From the UHGV virus genome UHGV-0058547: a stretch of DNA of 11,709 nucleotides; one strand, written 5' to 3'. How positions within the stretch are numbered: the first letter of the stretch is position 1; each line of letters starts with the position of its first letter. The position numbers and the translations under genes were made by a program. Source of the stretch: a virus. The notes under the pieces are model-generated. The model did no database searches, was not told where the DNA came from, and worked only from the letters and a program-made list of their open reading frames with translations. Shown in pieces: positions 746-11,709 of the stretch.

Positions 746-988
746 TCAAACCGCTTTTGAAGAGAATTTTTTGAAAATACGAATGGCAAGCCCAGCGCCA
801 ACCACAGCAACAACAACAGGCCATACTTTACCAATGAGATCATTTGCCTGAGTCAACAAAGCATCCATTGCCTGACCTGCATAATCAGTACCACCTGTAG
901 CGCCTTCAGCCGCAAAAGAACTTGCAGAAATAAAAAGCGCAGTTGAAGCCAGAGCAATTTTATATTTAACAGTAGACAGAATTTTCAT
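746..988 (-). CDS. gVIII: Major coat protein pVIII precursor
   Basis: 80 aa with signal peptide ending SSFA|AEG; mature part AEGATGG...[26 protein letters not shown] closely resembles the M13 (…FKKFTSKAS) and IKe (…FKKFSSKAV) coat proteins (recalled). GGAG 9 nt upstream of the ATG. Confidence 0.93.
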
Positions 989-1520: not shown

Positions 1521-2615
1521 TTAATGCCAGCTACTGGCGTGCGAAATACGGTTGTAATCGAAAATAAAACCTTTCTCATAAATCCATAAGGGGATTTCCG
1601 CTGGCTTGGCTTCCAGCGTTCTTATTAGCGGAACAACGTTATTAGAGTCTGGTGAATCACAATAGAAATTAATATCGATACCGAACGAAAGCAATTCTCT
1701 TCTATGGCGATAAAAAGTGTTATGAGGTAACATTTCTTTCATGTTAGCCCCTTGTTTCCAAAGTAAATAAGTTGACTGTATTTTTCTTGGCAGTTTCGTT
1801 ATTTTTTCATCACTTAAAATAGCATTCTGATTCATTTCTATTCTCCCTACATATTCAGAGAATAATTGACGTGGTGTTTTCATATTCCAGTTAGCGCCAA
1901 GCGTTAAATTTAAATCAATAAGCTCAGTTGTTCTTAATGTTAATTCAATACGTAATTTATCTTTCGTCCAGTCCAGTAACCCGGCTCGTACAAACTCTTC
2001 GGCTATCTGGTGCCCTTTTTTACCAGAAACGTGTTCATCATATTTTGAATAAAATTTCAGACTCCATCGACGGGAGTTTTTACCTAAATAAACTGTACCG
2101 CCTTTCCCACATGCGCGACCATGGCGTGTTTTAGCTTTAAATTCGGCGGCATAAAGCCATGATCTGACATTTTCCAGCGTAGATAATGAATACATGTAAT
2201 TAATGTCAATACGTGAAATTTTATACTGACCTGCCATAACGGCTTTATAAGACGCTAAATCATGAGGAATATTCAATAAGGATAAAATCCTGGCATAGAC
2301 CGTCAACATGAGCCCTTGTATATCATCCGACCCAACAACAGAATGCCCCTGCAGAAACTTGGAAGGATTACCATCAATGTACAAATGTGTCGCTTTACCT
2401 TCGCCATTAGATCCTATCGATCGTACTTTCATCGTTGCTTCATGCGAACCGCGAACAGTCAGTCGCTTAACGGTTTCCCACTCAATTGCACCGTCAGCAT
2501 CAACGCTGACAACACTCCCCGCCGGAAGCGGTTTGTGTGTGCAAGGGAAAATCCCGGTAAGCCAATCGATCACGAATAAATCCTCAAAATTACAAAAATG
2601 ACGACTTACTAACAC
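1521..2615 (-). CDS. gII: Rolling-circle replication initiation protein pII
   Basis: 364 aa. GNPSKFLQGHSVVGSDD and SNNVVPLIRT align with M13 pII KASPAKVLQGHNVFGTTD and CNNVVPLVRF (recalled). The only in-frame start after the upstream stop is GTG at 2613-2615, with no obvious SD, so the start is uncertain. An in-frame internal start for a pX-like product is possible but not resolved. Confidence 0.85.
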   Translation of the reverse strand: MLVSRHFCNFEDLFVIDWLTGIFPCTHKPLPAGSVVSVDADGAIEWETVKRLTVRGSHEATMKVRSIGSNGEGKATHLYIDGNPSKFLQGHSVVGSDDIQGLMLTVYARILSLLNIPHDLASYKAVMAGQYKISRIDINYMYSLSTLENVRSWLYAAEFKAKTRHGRACGKGGTVYLGKNSRRWSLKFYSKYDEHVSGKKGHQIAEEFVRAGLLDWTKDKLRIELTLRTTELIDLNLTLGANWNMKTPRQLFSEYVGRIEMNQNAILSDEKITKLPRKIQSTYLLWKQGANMKEMLPHNTFYRHRRELLSFGIDINFYCDSPDSNNVVPLIRTLEAKPAEIPLWIYEKGFIFDYNRISHASSWH

Positions 2616-4287: not shown

Positions 4288-4329
4288 AATCTAAAAGATT
4301 TTGGTTCGCACAATGACGTTATGCTAAAG

Positions 4330-4366
4330 AGGCCGCTGCGGGATTCGATTTTCGCAGCGGCCTTTT
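4330..4366 (+). terminator. Rho-independent terminator ending the RHH/membrane-protein operon
   Basis: 11-bp GC-rich stem AGGCCGCTGCG (4330-4340) pairing with CGCAGCGGCCT (4353-4363), 12-nt loop, then TTTT. Confidence 0.75.
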
Positions 4367-4396
4367 CAACATAACGAGTCCTACATTATGCGCACC
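4364..4396 (-). other. dif-like XerC/XerD recombination site (site 2), long central region
   Basis: Minus strand reads GGTGCGCATAA-TGTAGGACTCG-TTATGTTGAAA. E. coli dif is GGTGCGCATAA-TGTATA-TTATGTTAAAT. XerC arm 11/11, XerD arm 9/11, central region 11 nt. Confidence 0.65.
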
Positions 4397-4555
4397 AACA
4401 TAAACCAAGGGAGAATCCAGTGATTTGTGGACATCCTTGTTCTCGCAGAATATGGATGTGCTGAGTCTGGTTGGTTCGCCTAACGGTTGAAATGTCTTGC
4501 GGCCTTCACTGGGCTTGTTGAGTGTTCTGAATGTTCGCTTCAGGAACTGATTCAA

Positions 4556-5647
4556 ATGAAACGATTAATACTTGCTGCGACTGTAATAAGTGCAAGCCTG
4601 CTGCCATTTACCTGTTCGGCAAATGCCGACTCACTGGGTATCAATAAAGACTGCGATAACCATCCTGTCAGCCAGTACGGCATGGACACCATTACCGCAT
4701 TCAGTCAGTACAAGACGGAATCGAAAAAATTTAAAGATGCACTGACTGCGTTCTGCAATAAAGGCAAAACCATGGGCGACATGGGATTTGAAGCTGCCAA
4801 TGCTCACTCTCTTGCTGAAGCAAGGAAATGGACTGACTCCAGTCTTCCGGGGGGAAATGAAGAGCAGAAAAAATTTTCAGCAGCCATGGGGAGCCTGCTT
4901 TACTATGCAATGCTGAATGGATTCTCTGGTTTTGACTATCCCAGGTCGCCCGAGCAAAAAGAAAAATCAGTAAGCACATTTAATCCAAATGAGATATGTG
5001 ATGACATATCATCTAAAGCAGCCAAATATTCAACCTCGAATCTCCCCCCTCAAGTACAGATTTCATTAGCTGAGTGGAATCAAATCAAAGGCGAGTTTCA
5101 GATGGTGTGTTTTGCGGGAGTTATGGCGGGTAACAATCGCCAGTCGGTTGACTCAAAAATATTGGCTGGAATGAATGATATAGGCCCAGAAGTGAATTTG
5201 AGTGCTTATCGTTCTGGTTCGGAATACCCAAAGCCTCGCAGCAAAAACAACACGGAAAAAATTGATGCTACAGCAAGGGAGAAAGCGGCTGCAAAGAAGA
5301 AAGCAGATGCAGCCAGAAAACAAAGTGCCACCAACAAAACAAAGCAGGCTGACGATTATAAATCCAGGAGTGTTCGCCTTGACTCCCCCGATTTTCAACG
5401 CTTTCAGTCTTCACTCAGAAATGAATTTATGCGGCGAATTGGTGATGCGAAGCGTTTTTCAGGAAAAGAATGTTCAATAAATGTCTGGATGTCACAGAAA
5501 GGTGAGGTTCTGTCAGCCAGGAAGGAATCCGGAGATGAAGAGCTTTGCTCTGTGGTATTGCAGGCATCGAAGGGAATGAGGCTTAGCCCTATGAGTAATG
5601 AAGTTTACGGAGTGTTCCGTAATCCATCCCTCAACTTTAAATTCTAG
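4556..5647 (+). CDS. Secreted (signal-peptide) protein with K/A-rich helical linker and C-terminal TolA domain III-like domain
   Basis: Likely start MKRLILAATVISASLLPFTCSANA (signal peptide) at 4556, AGGA 10 nt upstream. C-terminus GKECSINVWMSQKGEVLSARKESGDEELCSVVLQASKGMRLSPMSNEVYGVFRNPSLNFKF aligns with the E. coli TolA C-terminus GKTCTLRIKLAPDGMLLDIKPEGGDPALCQAALAAAKLAKIPKPPSQAVYEVFKNAPLDFKP (recalled). Preceded by a Lys/Ala-rich stretch like TolA domain II. No TM anchor. Confidence 0.7.
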   Translation: MKRLILAATVISASLLPFTCSANADSLGINKDCDNHPVSQYGMDTITAFSQYKTESKKFKDALTAFCNKGKTMGDMGFEAANAHSLAEARKWTDSSLPGGNEEQKKFSAAMGSLLYYAMLNGFSGFDYPRSPEQKEKSVSTFNPNEICDDISSKAAKYSTSNLPPQVQISLAEWNQIKGEFQMVCFAGVMAGNNRQSVDSKILAGMNDIGPEVNLSAYRSGSEYPKPRSKNNTEKIDATAREKAAAKKKADAARKQSATNKTKQADDYKSRSVRLDSPDFQRFQSSLRNEFMRRIGDAKRFSGKECSINVWMSQKGEVLSARKESGDEELCSVVLQASKGMRLSPMSNEVYGVFRNPSLNFKF

Positions 5648-6102
5648 TTCATGCCGGGTAAGAGTCTTCACTTTTGTGGGGATTCTTATTTTCTTTTTGT
5701 TGTTATTGTCAGCTCAAGCCGCATGGCTCTCCTGCGGAGGGCTTAATATTGGGATAATATTGAAACATCAAAGACAGATGCAGATAAGTACAGAAAACCG
5801 ATAATAACAATTAAACAGTAAGTCTGTATAAGAGAATAACAGAATATATAAAAGAATTAACCCCGGTTGGCGATTTGGCGATGGTAACACAGATATTTAA
5901 ATCTGTAAAATGGTTATATTTATTTTTTTATTTACCCACCCTATCGGGTGATTCCGGCGCAGTCCTGACCCTGAGTACGCTCCCTGTAATGCACCATGCG
6001 CAACGCCAGAGTCAGTGGCAATGCAAAGCCATGACTAAGGCCAAAATCACCCCAAAACCGCATACAGGCAGTCAGCGGTCACGATGTAAGCAAAATACGA
6101 GA

Positions 6103-6122
6103 TACTGTATAAATAAACAGCC
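6103..6122. promoter_or_regulatory. LexA (SOS) box-like palindrome TACTGTATAAATAAACAGCC
   Basis: CTGT-N8-ACAG with an AT-rich spacer; 16/20 matches to the E. coli consensus TACTGTATATATATACAGTA. Contains a TATAAA -10-like hexamer. Lies in an 0.8-kb noncoding stretch about 340 bp upstream of the HNH_3-like gene. Confidence 0.5.
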
Positions 6123-6460
6123 CTGCAATTGTCAGGCATATGCGCCCTCTCACACTGACACCCCCCCTGTTCCGCCCTGTTTATTGCATCTGTACAGCCA
6201 TCTGAGCGCATCCGGCTGCAACCTGACGCATTTGCATGTGCCGTATTAATGATGCCACACAGAGCGCCTGACGGTTTGTACCATCATCTGTCACAATTCA
6301 TTGTTTGAAAAATTTTACATTTTATTTTTTGAAGTGATTACATAAATATAATCCATCTCTCCGGCATGAGTGCCTGACTGAAGGTGAATCGAAAAAGAAG
6401 GACCCGCCCCGATTCTTTTTACTCCCTTCCCTTTCAGTTAAATCACGCAGGAGAAATATC

Positions 6461-7408
6461 ATGCCCCGCTACAAAAAAGGTATCCGTAATAATTGCTTTC
6501 ATCAAAATTATACTCATGACGTATTGTTCCCCGGCGCAACATTCAGAACCCGACATAATGGAGAATGCGCCATTCTTGGCCGCTCTGATGATAAATCAAG
6601 GCGAGGCTATTATGTCGTGGAATTCAAAGACAGTGGCATCATCAAGGAAGCCTATGGCTCGCATATTAAAACTGGTTCTGTATCAGACGAAGCTTTTCCA
6701 TCATCGGAGGAAGAACGACGAAAGTTACTGATGACACCAAAATATTACGGCGTCGGATATATTGGTAATGGATGTCATTCAACTATTGAAAACACCCGAA
6801 CACACCAAAGAACGAGAGCATTCATACTCTGGCATAACATGCTGGCAAGGTGCTACATGACAACCAAAGGGAAGCAGTATTTTAAAGGCTACAAAGGTGT
6901 CACTGTATGCGAGCGATGGCATAACTTTCAGAACTTCTGCAATGACCTTCCAAAATTGCATGGCTACAACAAATGGAAGGATAATCCGGGAGAGTATGAG
7001 CTCGATAAGGATTACTCACATCGCCGGATTTATTCTGCTGACACGGTGGCATTTATCAGCACAGAAGAAAATGCCAGGGAAGCTGGATTACGACGCGTTG
7101 CCATGAAGATTCCTTCCGGGCATTATCATGAAATAAATAAAATTCGAGATGAGATATTAATGGAGGCTGAAGATGAATTAAAAAACAATCAAATTCATTA
7201 TGAAGTTGTTCTTGACGGGAATATGAAAGTAATCCTGTGTGAAACTCCTTATGGCACAGTGTTGTTCTGGCCTCTCACAAAAAAGATTCAGCGTAATTGC
7301 TACATGATTGATGGTGATGTACAGGTTTATGTTTATTACCTGCGCTGGCTCATACTTCAGTGGGAAAACAGAAATCCCGACATAAACTGTGTTGCTACAA
7401 CCTGTTGA
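6461..7408 (+). CDS. 315-aa protein with central degenerate HNH_3-like module; putative DNA-binding protein or inactive homing-endonuclease relative
   Basis: AGGAG 7 nt upstream of the ATG. Central motif W-HNM-LARCY ... YFKGYKGVTVCERWHNFQNFCND ... YELDKDYSHRRIYSADTVAFISTEENAR matches the phage HNH_3-family pattern W..M..RC ... YGGRGI.VC..W..F..F ... IDRID.DGNY.P.NCRW.T..EQ..N (recalled), but the canonical catalytic residues are not evident. Confidence 0.6.
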   Translation: MPRYKKGIRNNCFHQNYTHDVLFPGATFRTRHNGECAILGRSDDKSRRGYYVVEFKDSGIIKEAYGSHIKTGSVSDEAFPSSEEERRKLLMTPKYYGVGYIGNGCHSTIENTRTHQRTRAFILWHNMLARCYMTTKGKQYFKGYKGVTVCERWHNFQNFCNDLPKLHGYNKWKDNPGEYELDKDYSHRRIYSADTVAFISTEENAREAGLRRVAMKIPSGHYHEINKIRDEILMEAEDELKNNQIHYEVVLDGNMKVILCETPYGTVLFWPLTKKIQRNCYMIDGDVQVYVYYLRWLILQWENRNPDINCVATTC

Positions 7409-7589
7409 TGATGCTATAAAATAGTCATAAAATAACCGGCATTTCACAATGCTATCTATTAATAAGAAGAAACGAACATTCAGGATGTATCTGTAATTCC
7501 GCTGTTGCAGTGATTTTCTGTGCCAGAAAACAAGTGACAACGTCTGGCAGCTCATTGCAGAAGGCTAAATGCCAGCACTTCGTGCAGTC

Positions 7590-7619
7590 ATTTAACATGT
7601 TCAACACATTATGCGCACC
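7590..7619 (-). other. dif-like XerC/XerD recombination site (site 1)
   Basis: Minus strand reads GGTGCGCATAA-TGTGTTGA-ACATGTTAAAT. XerC arm 11/11 to E. coli dif; XerD arm 9/11, with the last 9 nt ATGTTAAAT identical; 8-nt central region. Confidence 0.7.
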
Positions 7620-8342: not shown

Positions 8343-8391
8343 TTTGATGGATAGCGAGCAGGGCTCACGCACCTACCCGCTATCCATCAAA
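8343..8391. repeat. Perfect 14-bp inverted repeat (TTTGATGGATAGCG ... CGCTATCCATCAAA) with 21-nt spacer, overlapping the gIV stop
   Basis: 8343-8356 is the exact reverse complement of 8378-8391. Position corresponds to the start of the Ff intergenic region (gIV terminator / packaging-signal hairpins). Confidence 0.6.
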
Positions 8392-9652
8392 GTGGACGAA
8401 TGATATGTGCTGTAAGCAAAATATACATAATACGCTGTTCATTGCTGTCTGCCTTGCTACTGAAAATCCAGCCTATAAGAGGAATTTTACTTATAACTGG
8501 AACTGAACGCTCGGCATTGCTGAACGATGAATCGATAAGCCCCCCCAATAACAACGTCTGACCATCCTTAATCTGGACTGTCGTCTGAATCTGGCGCTGA
8601 TTAGTAATAATATCGGATGCCTGATCATCATTGCTGATTGAATCAGCGCGAGTGTCGATAGTCAGAACTAGTTGCCCGTTACCCATGACAACAGGCGTTA
8701 CCTTGAGAGAAACGCCAACATCATGACGCTCGATAGTCTGAAACGGATTATTTACCCCGGCAGATTCGCCCGTTACCTTTCCGGTGATAAACGGCACATT
8801 CTTACCTACGGAAATGTAACCAGTCTGACCAGACTGAGTAAGAATACGCGGCGTTGAAATCACCTTAGAGCGTGAATTACTCTGGACAGCACGCAGAGAC
8901 AGCGCCAACACGTTACCATCAAAAATACCAAAAGAACCGCCCGCCGTAGAAAGAGCGCTACCCAGTGCAGAAGTATTAAAGCCCCCCGCAACCTTATGAC
9001 CGGATGCAGAACCTGCCGCAAACGATAAATCAACGCCATCAGACAAGCTGGTTTCAAACATCAGCGACTGAATGAGAACCTGATCGCGGGCAACATCCAC
9101 AGAATTGATAAAATCGGACAGAACCGGCAGCAGCTCGTCAGGCGCAGAAACAATCAGCGAGTTATTGCCTGGATAATCCACGACATTACCACCACCATTA
9201 GAATCAAGATAAATTTTAATCAGTTGCTGAACATCGGACGATCTAACTTTTGTCAGCTTAAAATTTCTGACCGTAAGCGCCACAGGTACTGGCTGGTAAG
9301 ATGGCTCAGAAGGAAAAGTATCATAAGACTGGTTATCAGAATCATCGGAATCCGAAACCATCTGTGAAGGTAATTTAGACGGCAAAGAGACTACCGCAGG
9401 ATTGCCAGAAAGCATGACAAAACCGTTAGCATTCAGAACAGACTTAAAGAAATCATCAATATTTGTTGGATTAACATCAGCATTAAATACGGTTACGTTT
9501 CCTTTAATATCAGGATTAACAATAACAGGCTTGCCAGTTTTTGAAGAATACCACTGAACAAATGAGCGAACAGATGAATTATTTAAATTAACAGTTTCAG
9601 CAGAAACGCAGAATGAACAGGCAAATAAAAAAGCAACAATAACAGAGCGCAT
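8387..9652 (-). CDS. gIV: Secretin pIV (phage export channel)
   Basis: 421 aa from ATG 9652 (AGGAG 8 nt upstream). N-terminus MRSVIVAFLFACSFCVSAETVNLNNSSVRSFVQWY parallels M13 pIV MKLLNVINFVFLMFVSSSSFAQVIEMNNSPLRDFVTWY; conserved secretin core GGSFGIFDGNVLALSLRAVQSNS..., VPFITGKVTGESAGVNNPFQTIERHDVGVSLKV, DGQTLLLGGL, IPLIGWIFSS (recalled). The track start at 9745 is a spurious upstream extension overlapping gI. Confidence 0.93.
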   Translation of the reverse strand: MRSVIVAFLFACSFCVSAETVNLNNSSVRSFVQWYSSKTGKPVIVNPDIKGNVTVFNADVNPTNIDDFFKSVLNANGFVMLSGNPAVVSLPSKLPSQMVSDSDDSDNQSYDTFPSEPSYQPVPVALTVRNFKLTKVRSSDVQQLIKIYLDSNGGGNVVDYPGNNSLIVSAPDELLPVLSDFINSVDVARDQVLIQSLMFETSLSDGVDLSFAAGSASGHKVAGGFNTSALGSALSTAGGSFGIFDGNVLALSLRAVQSNSRSKVISTPRILTQSGQTGYISVGKNVPFITGKVTGESAGVNNPFQTIERHDVGVSLKVTPVVMGNGQLVLTIDTRADSISNDDQASDIITNQRQIQTTVQIKDGQTLLLGGLIDSSFSNAERSVPVISKIPLIGWIFSSKADSNEQRIMYILLTAHIIRPL

Positions 9653-9659
9653 AATAATA

Positions 9660-10754
9660 TTACTCCTGACAGGTAACAGTCTGTAAATAACGGCCTTTTC
9701 TAATAACAACACGACAGGCATCTTTAATATCAACGGAATAACCATCTTTAATCAAATCAAAATACTGATATTTCATACCTTTTGCATCAACAAACGTAAC
9801 GGAAACGTCAAAGCCAAGTTGTGAAAAAGAATTAATAGAAAGTCGGGGTAAGTCACTGGACGAATCAGGCGTTACCGCCCTCGCCTGTTCAGCATAAGCA
9901 GATTTAATAGCTGAGATTTCATCAACATTCTTTCCAGACTGGAGCCAGAAACCAAACGCAAGCCCCAGCGCCAAAAAAGAAAGCATTAATATAAGACGGT
10001 TCGATTTGCGAAAATAAATTTTAGTGAGGCGCATATAATAATTAAATCCTCTGTGAACAGAAAATTGACCGTGCGTGATAAATGGTGGCAAAAGCGAAAA
10101 TGCGCCATGAGGATAATTATCTGTGAACGCTTGTTTGGTATTGTAAGCAGAATAAAGAGATTTTCCTGTATATATCCATTTATCAACAGTGATTGAATTA
10201 ACATTATCACCATATTTGACAATGCCAAAGTGTACCTTTGGTAAAGAAAATCTCGCCCCTGAAACCAAATTCATAATGGAGCCAACAAAAGGAATGTTTA
10301 ATTTATCTGAACGGCGACAATAAACAACATGCTCAGCAAGCGCCAGACGAGCTTGCTTATCCATTATCGAAATATCCTGAATCAAAAATATAATATCCCA
10401 GCCTAATTTTCTGGCATGTAAAAACCAGTCAATAACAGGTTGTCTGTCTTTATCACCCCATGAGCGGGAATTAAACCAAGTACCACATTCATCAAGTACA
10501 AGGAGGCCATTACGGGATTCATCGTAAGATGTATTCCCAATACCAATAGCAAGTAAATCATTTAATGAAGGCTTGTCAGGAATGCGAATAACGCGCGTTT
10601 TTTTCGCATAACGCCCAACCATAGGCATATTATGCAATTTAAGATCAAGATTAGTGGCAACAGGACAACCCTTAGCAAGTCTTTCCTGTATTCTGGAAAC
10701 ACTAACAAGTGTCTTGCCTGAGCCTAATTTGCCTGTTACTACATAAACCGCCAT
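9660..10754 (-). CDS. gI: Assembly ATPase pI (Zot-like)
   Basis: MAVYVVTGKLGSGKTLVS... with Walker A; long colinear similarity to M13 pI MAVYFVTGKLGSGKTLVSVGKIQDKI...LLVLDECGTWFNTRSW...DWFLHARKLGWDIIFLVQD...AEHVVYCRR (recalled). ATG immediately follows the gVI stop (TAAATG). Confidence 0.93.
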   Translation of the reverse strand: MAVYVVTGKLGSGKTLVSVSRIQERLAKGCPVATNLDLKLHNMPMVGRYAKKTRVIRIPDKPSLNDLLAIGIGNTSYDESRNGLLVLDECGTWFNSRSWGDKDRQPVIDWFLHARKLGWDIIFLIQDISIMDKQARLALAEHVVYCRRSDKLNIPFVGSIMNLVSGARFSLPKVHFGIVKYGDNVNSITVDKWIYTGKSLYSAYNTKQAFTDNYPHGAFSLLPPFITHGQFSVHRGFNYYMRLTKIYFRKSNRLILMLSFLALGLAFGFWLQSGKNVDEISAIKSAYAEQARAVTPDSSSDLPRLSINSFSQLGFDVSVTFVDAKGMKYQYFDLIKDGYSVDIKDACRVVIRKGRYLQTVTCQE

Positions 10755-11096: not shown

Positions 11097-11709
11097 CACT
11101 CACCCCCTTTGCGAAGCAATGAAGTTAAAGAAGTAAAGACATACCAGAACGTAAGGCAATAAAAAACCCATGAAAGAACATCTTTAATAGTCAGTAATTT
11201 ATCGCAACCAATATCAATCTGATAAACCTCTCCGGGAAAAATAATAAAATCAGAGCAGCCGTTACCATTGGGTAAATTAGGCAGCATAGCACCTTTATTT
11301 AAAAATGCTTCCCATAAAGCACCGTGAGAATCCTTTTCAATTCCCAATTCAGAATCAGCTAAAGTAGAAGCGCCATCTAATTCAGAGTCGCCCTTTCCAT
11401 AACGAGAATCACCACCTGAAGGGTCAGCAAAACGGCCAGCCCCCCGCGTAAGATTGTTAATGGAATCGTCAAGACGATTTATATTATTCCTGGTTTGTTC
11501 ATCGGCATTTTTTTTATCATCTGATGAAGTGTCTTTCTCCGTTAATTTATCATGAATATCGCTGGCTATTTTGGGTGAAGCACCTTCGATCGCAGACTGA
11601 ATATCACCTTTAGAAAGACTGGAACCACTAGAGCCACCGCCAGAACTACCGCCAGAACTACCGCCAGAACTACCGCCAGAACTACCGCCACCGGACTCAC
11701 CACCGGACT
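11096..11709 (-). CDS. gIII: Adsorption/minor coat protein pIII, C-terminal portion (partial; ORF enters from the right edge)
   Basis: Frame is open from the window edge to the TGA at 11096-11098 (translated by hand). C-terminus ...NLPNGNGCSDFIIFPGEVYQIDIGCDKLLTIKDVLSWVFYCLTFWYVFTSLTSLLRKGGE parallels M13 g3p ...ECRPFVFGAGKPYEFSIDCDKINLFRGVFAFLLYVATFMYVFSTFANILRNKES (recalled). Preceded by (GGSS)n and GGES linker repeats. Confidence 0.88.
   Translation of the reverse strand, partial: SGGESGGGSSGGSSGGSSGGSSGGGSSGSSLSKGDIQSAIEGASPKIASDIHDKLTEKDTSSDDKKNADEQTRNNINRLDDSINNLTRGAGRFADPSGGDSRYGKGDSELDGASTLADSELGIEKDSHGALWEAFLNKGAMLPNLPNGNGCSDFIIFPGEVYQIDIGCDKLLTIKDVLSWVFYCLTFWYVFTSLTSLLRKGGE
11641..11688 (-). 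repeat. Four tandem 12-nt repeats (cagaactaccgc) encoding the (GGSS)n linker of pIII
   Basis: Direct reading of 11641-11688; minus-strand translation gives alternating GG/SS. Confidence 0.9.

Follow-up and report, generated by a model that had tools for sequence, protein, structure and literature searches.

A homing-endonuclease-like gene as the hallmark of an apparently undescribed family of Xer-exploiting elements in Enterobacterales

The analyzed stretch of viral DNA (UHGV-0058547, 11,709 nucleotides, hereafter the window) represents a CUS-1/Ypf-phi-like filamentous prophage of Escherichia coli with a 3.2-kb insert, which holds an open reading frame (ORF) of 315 aa. The insert belongs to a family of Xer-exploiting elements found in chromosomes and plasmids of Enterobacterales, and this ORF is the only gene common to every element copy across genera, including the minimal one of 1.95 kb; it is referred to below as the hallmark gene. 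Since no other gene is present in every copy, the role of its product as a mobility factor of the module, suggested earlier by a sequence-only reading of the window, is well supported.

The position of the gene is as follows:

6461–7408, plus strand: 315-aa ORF, hallmark gene of the dif-integrating element (ORF call, orthologs, dN/dS)

The ORF has an ATG start and an AGGAG ribosome-binding site 8 nt upstream, and its product is named hypothetical protein (WP_001138412.1) in RefSeq. The gene is intact, at an identity of at least 99%, in 95 of 5,426 complete E. coli genomes (132 places, all chromosomal). Orthologs with 54–79% identity were detected in Enterobacter, Kluyvera, Scandinavium, Buttiauxella, Yersinia, Serratia, Citrobacter, Rouxiella, and Tatumella, and the protein was found in at least 10 enterobacterial genera. 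The pairwise ratio of nonsynonymous to synonymous substitution rates (dN/dS) is 0.07–0.12; all three parts of the protein are constrained, including the clade-specific C-terminal third (0.14–0.28). Because of its intact state in 95 E. coli genomes, the orthologs elsewhere, and the low dN/dS, the ORF is a functional gene and not a chance ORF, in agreement with the earlier call. A search of IMG/VR with the hallmark protein found no close relative (the best had 34–40% identity), and hence this database offers no evidence for packaging of the element in virions.

Between genera, the dS of codons 216–315 (7106–7405) is 0.5–1.0 versus more than 1.6 in the rest of the gene; the low values in its 3' third hint at an overlapping cis-acting DNA element or at a mosaic history. 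The chromosomes of the laboratory strain E. coli C and its derivatives (E. coli C, NCTC122, WG5) carry the element with ISSen4 inserted in the module, and the hallmark gene in them is 100% identical, so that these strains would be convenient for experiments.

At each end of the 3.2-kb module, the minus strand has an exact XerC arm, GGTGCGCATAA (4386–4396 and 7609–7619). The two junctions are organized as follows:

7590–7619, minus strand: right junction, an element-type Xer site with the XerC arm (7619–7609), the central region TGTGTTGA (8 nt, 7608–7601), and the XerD-like arm ACATGTTAAAT (7600–7590)
4369–4396, minus strand: left junction of the module, with the element-side XerC arm (4396–4386), the phage-type central region TGTAGG, and the XerD-like arm ACTCGTTATGT

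The module had been described as dif-flanked. This is correct as far as the arms at both ends are concerned, but canonical dif was not found in the window at up to three mismatches, and both flanking sites are hybrids of phage and element sequences. The element in the window sits between two phage-type junctions, and that of Kluyvera georgiana also has a phage-type junction.

Comparison of the copies in different genomes showed that each one ends approximately 210 bp downstream of the hallmark gene in GGTGCGCATAA-TGTGTTGA-ACATGTTAAAT, with minor variants. The left-hand site is that of the host, namely, canonical dif, as in E. coli A27, Serratia, Yersinia, and Buttiauxella, or an Xer site of a plasmid. 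In E. coli A27, the element is located between canonical dif (GGTGCGCATAATGTATATTATGTTAAAT) and hipA, without phage genes. Serratia liquefaciens contains two tandem 3,251-bp copies with three sites, and the same layout was found in Yersinia, two Buttiauxella species, and Kluyvera, the last with two copies. In E. coli ET791 (1300–20509 of its own stretch), six tandem elements of two variants occupy dif beside hipA, again without phage genes. Five of these copies belong to one variant, which consists of a 134-aa ORF, a short protein with the C-terminal domain of TolA (TolA-C), and the hallmark gene; the sixth, nearest hipA, represents a different variant, and one hallmark gene copy of the array is shortened (846 nt). 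The element is also carried by 42 plasmid records, in plasmid Xer sites with the central regions CAAAGA and TGAACC. Accordingly, it is found as a solitary element, in arrays of up to six tandem copies, on plasmids, or next to a CUS-1-like filamentous prophage. The size of the elements is 2–5 kb, and the minimal one (1.95 kb, Buttiauxella) has one small extra ORF besides the hallmark gene. Kept in all elements are approximately 200 bp of the left end, approximately 175 bp upstream of the hallmark ORF, the ORF itself, and approximately 210 bp downstream to the site.

In all junctions compared, the XerD arm retains its central region, which implies an exchange on the XerC side, the product of such an exchange being deduced from the established Xer mechanism. 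By analogy with CTX-phi and VGJ-phi, integration would proceed through this exchange followed by replication. The plasmid central regions TGAACC and CAAAGA (sites 4013/7174 and 1486/4712 of two plasmids) share little or nothing with TGTGTTGA; insertion in plasmids is odd if the XerC-side exchange needs pairing of central regions, as in CTX-phi.

These properties are those of integrative mobile elements that exploit Xer (IMEXs). Directly oriented dif/Xer and dif-like sites bound the element at the Xer site of the host in seven or more genera and in plasmids. No integrase or recombinase domain was found among the ORFs of the module (the TolA-C protein and the hallmark protein), i.e., the element is without its own recombinase. 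Repeated independent integration is indicated by two copies in Serratia, two in Kluyvera, six copies of two variants in ET791, and the insertions in plasmid Xer sites. Judged by sequence, the element has every feature by which an IMEX can be recognized at this level. With CTX-phi/RS1, VGJ-phi, TLC-phi, CUS-1/Ypf-phi, and the gonococcal genetic island (GGI) it shares the lack of a recombinase, the dif and dif-like flanks, tandem arrays, canonical dif regenerated on the XerD side, and XerC-side exchange junctions as in the CTX and VGJ types. Unlike these IMEXs, it has no phage morphogenesis, HUH replication, or secretion genes, its sole conserved gene is homing-endonuclease-like, and it also inserts in plasmid Xer sites, the central regions of which are unrelated. 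Phage-less arrays of the ET791 type fit an element that makes its own copies; they could also result from unequal Xer exchange between sister chromosomes. The pdif/dif modules of Acinetobacter are similar in being small cassettes between XerC/XerD sites of plasmids and chromosomes, but they have no common hallmark gene and the orientation of their sites alternates, whereas the present element has the same gene in every copy and a specific asymmetric site.

Conserved DNA was found at both ends of the element:

7561–7593, no strand assigned: near-invariant block (alignment of nine elements from seven genera), unique in the window
4473–4504, plus strand: inner inverted XerC-like arm GGTTCGCCTAA and the 17-mer TGAAATGTCTTGCGGCC, conserved

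The right-end block of approximately 60 bp (7561–7619) is the most conserved DNA of the element, with nearly 100% conservation in these nine elements versus approximately 72% identity of the gene. It contains a 27-nt imperfect palindrome, AAATGCCAGCAC-TTC-GTGCAGTCATTT (7567–7593), which shares 4 nt with the XerD-like arm and is a candidate binding or nick site. At the left end, the spacer between the inner and outer XerC arms varies from 8 to approximately 75 nt across genera. Folding of the tandem or circular junction as single-stranded DNA gave a forked hairpin. Its z-score is −4.56 on the strand with the same orientation as the phage plus strand (the minus strand), where none of 200 shuffles folds as well; the value for the opposite strand is −1.69. 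Compensatory changes were not seen in the proposed attP hairpin, which is supported by conservation and by the folding z-score. The left and right ends may form, in a circular or tandem junction, a hairpin attP similar to that of CTX-phi, and such a folded site would be one more likeness to IMEXs.

The hallmark protein consists of the following parts:

6518–6676, plus strand: SH3/Tudor/Sac7d-like beta-barrel, residues ~20–72, presumed DNA-binding
6743–7105, plus strand: central domain, residues 95–215, with YGVGY, W..ML.RCY, RWHNFQNF, and ELDKD...Y...N
6995–7072, plus strand: predicted beta-beta-alpha motif, residues 179–204 (D182 as D74, K183 as H75, and N204 as N96 of the homing endonuclease I-HmuI; Y191 in the omega-loop)
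7106–7405, plus strand: alpha/beta C-terminal domain, residues 216–315, present solely in the element's orthologs

The AlphaFold2 model (48 homologs; mean predicted local distance difference test score, pLDDT, 86.9) has three parts, a beta-barrel (strands within 27–65), a central helical-plus-hairpin domain (~95–215), and an alpha/beta C-terminal domain (219–304). For the barrel, matches were obtained with Tudor, SH3, CarD-N, and KOW domains and a weak one with Sac7d; a Foldseek search of the full model against PDB gave solely marginal Tudor/SH3 matches. The barrel and the central domain are common to a whole family of phage proteins, and the linker of residues 73–94 is specific to the element orthologs. 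When searched alone, the C-terminal 100 residues showed no homologs beyond these orthologs. The earlier statement that unique extensions of approximately 100 aa are present at both ends is correct for the C-terminal 100 residues (and for the linker), but not for residues ~20–72, which are family-wide. Where the hallmark protein has this orphan C-terminal domain, ordinary relatives have the NUMOD-like helix-turn-helix (HTH) of I-HmuI.

According to the profile search, the family is very large, with 33,406 representatives of 50%-identity clusters at E ≤ 1e-3 and 3,057 at E ≤ 1e-30. Tblastn detected homologs in 920 phage records (1,341 places), mostly in Vibrio, Bacillus, and Staphylococcus phages. 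Their annotations are inconsistent and include HNH endonuclease, winged HTH protein, and hypothetical protein. The families PHROG 2081, 953, and 374, labeled 'HNH endonuclease', match the hallmark protein with E-values of 2e-35 to 1e-17. This label may rest on the NUMOD-like tail; the corresponding I-HmuI module, PF22083, was found at the C-terminal end of 27 of 91 family members, and NUMOD4 in none of the 91. In phage Sophrita, a free-standing member is located between the genes of the ribonucleotide reductase beta subunit and dUTPase, and other members are in-frame insertions in the thymidylate synthase gene (thyA). The phage relatives thus occupy classic homing-endonuclease positions. The thyA insertions lie in the loop after the QWR motif and result in 'ThyA' proteins of 467–564 aa (e.g., Bacillus phage 015DV002, 1003–2697), without obvious intein hallmarks; they may represent inserted domains or in-frame intron ORFs.

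Since the relatives act as selfish insertions in phage genomes, it could be supposed that the hallmark gene is likewise a free-standing selfish passenger of homing-endonuclease type, without a role in the element. This is very improbable, as every element has the gene, placed at a fixed distance from and in a fixed orientation to the Xer site, while other genes vary, its clade-specific C-terminal domain is under purifying selection, and the orthologous clade occurs in no context other than these elements. The protein probably descends from homing endonucleases of the I-HmuI lineage, with the NUMOD-like HTH tail swapped for a new domain.

Comparison with I-HmuI also indicates the nature of the central domain. 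Alignment of the whole family with 65 I-HmuI homologs in hhalign gave a probability of 96.2% (E-value 2.7e-9). In this register, DTVAFISTEEN (194–204) is placed on TNLRWVTQKIN (86–96), and N204 corresponds to the metal-binding N96 of I-HmuI. Ungapped extension backwards places D182-K183 on D74-H75, with the same spacing of 21 between K183 and N204 and between H75 and N96. The family profile also matches I-HmuI residues 107–171, directly after its HNH domain, which puts the central domain in the place of the catalytic domain. In the AlphaFold2 model, K183 follows directly the first strand (179–182), Y191 is in the loop, and the second strand (197–200) is followed by a helix (201–215) with N204 in its first turn. 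Such a predicted strand-loop-strand-helix placement of the three residues would correspond to the defining arrangement of the His-Me finger (PMC5714182). Weak fold matches of the protein to PacI, Hpy99I, and the HNH domain of Cas9 were also found. The profile alignment, the spacing of the motif, and the fold matches make it quite probable that the central domain is a diverged His-Me finger of the HNH superfamily.

In general, the similarity to I-HmuI and HNH_3 proteins (PF13392; PDB 1U3E) includes the architecture of ordinary family members (a DNA-binding N-terminus, a beta-beta-alpha domain, and the PF22083 HTH), the aligned second strand and helix with the same spacing to the His position and the preceding Asp kept, and phage contexts typical of homing endonuclease genes. 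The differences are also considerable. The hallmark protein has no Pfam match to HNH_3 or NUMOD4, Lys stands in place of His75 and Thr in place of the structural Asn87, and the stretch from the preceding helix to the first strand is longer by approximately 45 residues. An SH3-like barrel takes the place of NUMOD4, an orphan domain that of the NUMOD-like tail, and the gene resides in an Xer-dependent element instead of an intron or phage.

The sequence-only reading had described the protein as a degenerate HNH_3-like one on the basis of the string YELDKDYSHRRIYSADTVAFIS, which corresponds to residues 179–200 (6995–7060) and in which the catalytic His, Asn, and Asp appeared substituted. The substitution is real for the catalytic His, the position of which is occupied by Lys183 throughout the family, but the Asp (D182) and the helix Asn (N204) are kept. 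These two residues correspond to the metal ligands of His-Me fingers, i.e., the Asn of the helix and the D, E, or H before the His position (PMC5714182). In 22 diverse sequences, R130, C131, Y132, Y144, V149, W153, F159, D182, K183, D184, Y191, and N204 are invariant; in 91 diverse sequences, R130, Y132, W153, F159, D182, K183, D184, and Y191 are invariant, and N204 and C131 nearly so. The signature DKD..Y..N is present in 97 of 98 viral high-scoring segment pairs (79 IMG/VR contigs). The Lys-for-His motif is accordingly a fixed variant of the whole family and not a sign of decay, and the term degenerate is incorrect. The further proposal that the protein is a regulator or mobility factor rather than an active nuclease finds no support in its second part, as the signature is fixed in thousands of phage homologs with both metal-ligand positions intact.

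According to the classification of His-Me fingers, three groups lack the His; the PacI group uses an omega-loop Tyr, and the other two are inactive binders (PMC5714182). R.PacI (group 20; PDB 3M7K/3LDY) likewise has no catalytic His and uses an omega-loop Tyr (PMC5714182), for which the invariant omega-loop Y191 would be a candidate counterpart. On the other hand, the match to PacI is a weak one, the sequences showed no similarity, and PacI serves in restriction and has an N-terminal domain of HTH-like type (PMC5714182). Because the omega-loop Tyr is invariant, both metal ligands are kept, and the phage relatives behave as mobile nuclease genes, retained catalysis is somewhat favored over its loss.

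Taken together, the data allow the tentative interpretation that the hallmark protein would nick or bind DNA site-specifically, as an enzyme with its place of action at the conserved end of the element; its exact site and the purpose of its action are proposed with still greater reserve. The protein would bind DNA sequence-specifically and nick one strand as I-HmuI does. It would act in cis on the right-end palindrome that overlaps the XerD-like arm, and the nick would generate or control a transferable copy of the element. This copy would then be integrated by host XerC through XerC-side strand exchange.

Several results weigh against this interpretation. Pfam HNH_3 (PF13392) has no match in the protein at E ≤ 10, and thus the HNH_3 pattern noted earlier does not hold as membership in this family; the domain is also absent from 91 family members and 20 long or distant relatives, whereas all 65 I-HmuI homologs carry it. 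NCBIfam and PDB sequence searches gave nothing for the central domain, and neither Pfam nor NCBIfam has a model for it (in Pfam, this also applies to the 91 diverse members). The core domain alone could not be aligned with the I-HmuI family in hhalign. An experimentally characterized member of the family was not identified. The classification of His-Me fingers includes no member with Lys as general base, and two of its three His-less groups are inactive binders of DNA or substrate (PMC5714182). The link between the protein and the palindrome is an inference; alternatively, a host factor might bind the palindrome, or its conservation might be that of a part of attP. The XerC-first integration of CTX/VGJ-type elements (CTX-phi, VGJ-phi) needs no element-encoded protein.

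The missing catalytic His is also the starting point of an alternative explanation, which is less probable than the nicking enzyme and in our opinion doubtful. In line with the main idea of the sequence-only reading, the hallmark protein would be a catalytically dead DNA binder, its His-Me-like domain and SH3 barrel serving for binding alone, and would act as either a repressor of the element or an Xer accessory factor that occludes XerD; in the latter version, equally doubtful, the occlusion would favor XerC-only exchange and block FtsK-driven excision. With K183 at the His position, the protein could be compared with His-less His-Me fingers such as Smad MH1, which bind DNA (PMC5714182), and a factor of this kind has a precedent in XafT, the Xer factor encoded by the IMEX TLC-phi (PMC6744903). 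The palindrome with its 4-nt overlap with the XerD-like arm, which outranks all other element DNA in conservation, fits a binding site, and a constitutive nuclease in 95 E. coli genomes might be costly. However, the invariance of D182, K183, D184, and Y191, with N204 close to it, resembles an active site and not a DNA-reading surface, and it extends over thousands of phage homologs with genomic contexts like those of homing endonucleases. XerC-first IMEXs (CTX-phi, VGJ-phi) work without an accessory factor, and Pfam shows no similarity of the hallmark protein to XafT-type factors (the DUF3653 HTH domain) or to HTH regulator families.

The invariant Y191 permits one more, quite improbable, assumption, in which Tyr191 would act as the nucleophile of a covalent nick-and-rejoin reaction, a new catalytic flavor of the His-Me finger; such a role of Tyr has been proposed for PacI and is comparable to that in HUH enzymes. 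The protein would then be, just as improbably, a non-HUH rolling-circle initiator producing single-stranded circles from tandem or integrated copies, the ends of which would form the CTX-phi-like hairpin attP for XerC integration at dif. If true, the element would be a self-sufficient one-gene single-stranded DNA element, and the 33,000-cluster phage family would represent unrecognized nuclease chemistry.

The remaining part of the module contains a cargo gene and conserved non-coding stretches:

4556–5647, plus strand: variable cargo gene of the window copy, encoding a secreted protein with a TolA C-terminal domain
5658–6246, no strand assigned: partly conserved non-coding stretch between the cargo and the hallmark gene
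6265–6460, plus strand: conserved upstream region with an AT-rich promoter-like stretch, a leader with AGGACCCGnCCCGATTCTTTTT, and the ribosome-binding site

The cargo protein has a signal peptide and the C-terminal TolA domain PF06519 (E-value 5.5e-11). The cargo differs between copies, with TolA-C in the window, three small ORFs in Serratia, Enterobacter, and Citrobacter, and almost nothing in Buttiauxella. Domain III of TolA is the co-receptor of g3p of Ff-type phages and of colicins, and by analogy the secreted TolA-C cargo could be a decoy that provides superinfection exclusion.

The cargo bears on the possibility that the hallmark protein, instead of serving replication of the element, is a conflict nuclease that nicks or cuts competing DNA and is directed against replicative forms of filamentous phages or against rival dif elements, the host benefiting from the element and keeping it. 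A secreted TolA-C protein would fit such an anti-filamentous-phage theme, since TolA is the co-receptor of Ff g3p, and the elements of E. coli and Kluyvera occupy dif together with CUS-1-like filamentous prophages. A parallel is NixI (WP_032468646), a nickase similar to I-HmuI that was recruited by PLE, a non-autonomous mobile element of Vibrio cholerae, and acts against its helper phage (PMC9410903). By its description, NixI differs from the hallmark protein in keeping the HNH/N motif and in serving as an anti-helper weapon of a satellite of a tailed phage (PMC9410903). No PADLOC defense model matches the hallmark protein or the cargo, most elements stand alone without a phage, and the element and the phage co-reside peacefully in the window. 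Nor would a pure defense gene be expected as the sole invariant gene, fixed beside the recombination site. This explanation is therefore considered improbable, though less so than the passenger or the Tyr191 nucleophile.

The non-coding stretch, delimited as 5658–6120 or 5658–6246, is missing from the minimal Buttiauxella element. A possible hidden gene in the gap of 800 bp before the hallmark ORF (frame 5815–6246), open in E. coli and Kluyvera and broken in Serratia, was rejected because its amino acid identity of 32–44% is the expectation for non-coding DNA with approximately 70% identity. An origin or packaging signal of a helper phage in the module was also rejected, since the module has no similarity to phage records and shares no repeat with the phage part. 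Scanning of the module revealed no strong hairpins outside the attP regions. In the upstream region, the motif AGGACCCGnCCCGATTCTTTTT is located at approximately 6396–6420, directly before the ribosome-binding site, and the leader with it could be an attenuator or terminator-like structure.

The rest of the window belongs to the filamentous prophage. Most related E. coli prophages cover only 65% of the window, and the uncovered part is the 3.2-kb insert. The following genes of the prophage were identified:

746–988, minus strand: major coat protein
1521–2615, minus strand: pII-type replication protein
8387–9745, minus strand: secretin
9660–10754, minus strand: Zot-like protein
minus strand: single-stranded DNA-binding protein of the prophage

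Gene III of the prophage extends past both ends of the window, the ends (1–100 and 11566–11709) being its glycine-rich repeat. When the ends are joined, a frameshifted g3p is obtained, the N-terminal 226 aa and C-terminal 83 aa of which match the C10 protein. Two readings of the window are possible, a circle that was closed imperfectly or a contig with its break at the repeat between two copies of the phage. The CUS-1-like phage has an attP (4303–4396) that forms a strong imperfect hairpin with arms 4317–4340 and 4353–4376 and outer XerC-like arms; its folding z-score on the minus strand is −7.4, as for a folded site of the CTX-phi type. An Rfam scan of the window found nothing meaningful.

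No paper on the protein accessions or on dif/IMEX elements with a homing-endonuclease gene in Enterobacteriaceae was found in the literature searched. The UP-phi paper reports variable accessory regions beside dif in related prophages, but not the 3.2-kb module. The family of Xer-exploiting elements of Enterobacterales chromosomes and plasmids is, apparently, undescribed. With a single conserved gene, it makes testable the long-standing question of how phage-less IMEXs make and move their copies. The invariant Lys-for-His replacement points to one of two things, a novel mode of operation of a His-Me-finger nuclease or the massive radiation of inactivated enzymes, and each outcome would be informative for nuclease enzymology and for phage annotation. 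In addition, the element shares dif with virulence-linked prophages of the CUS-1/Ypf type and, in the window copy, carries a secreted TolA-C domain, and may in this way influence the traffic of filamentous phages.

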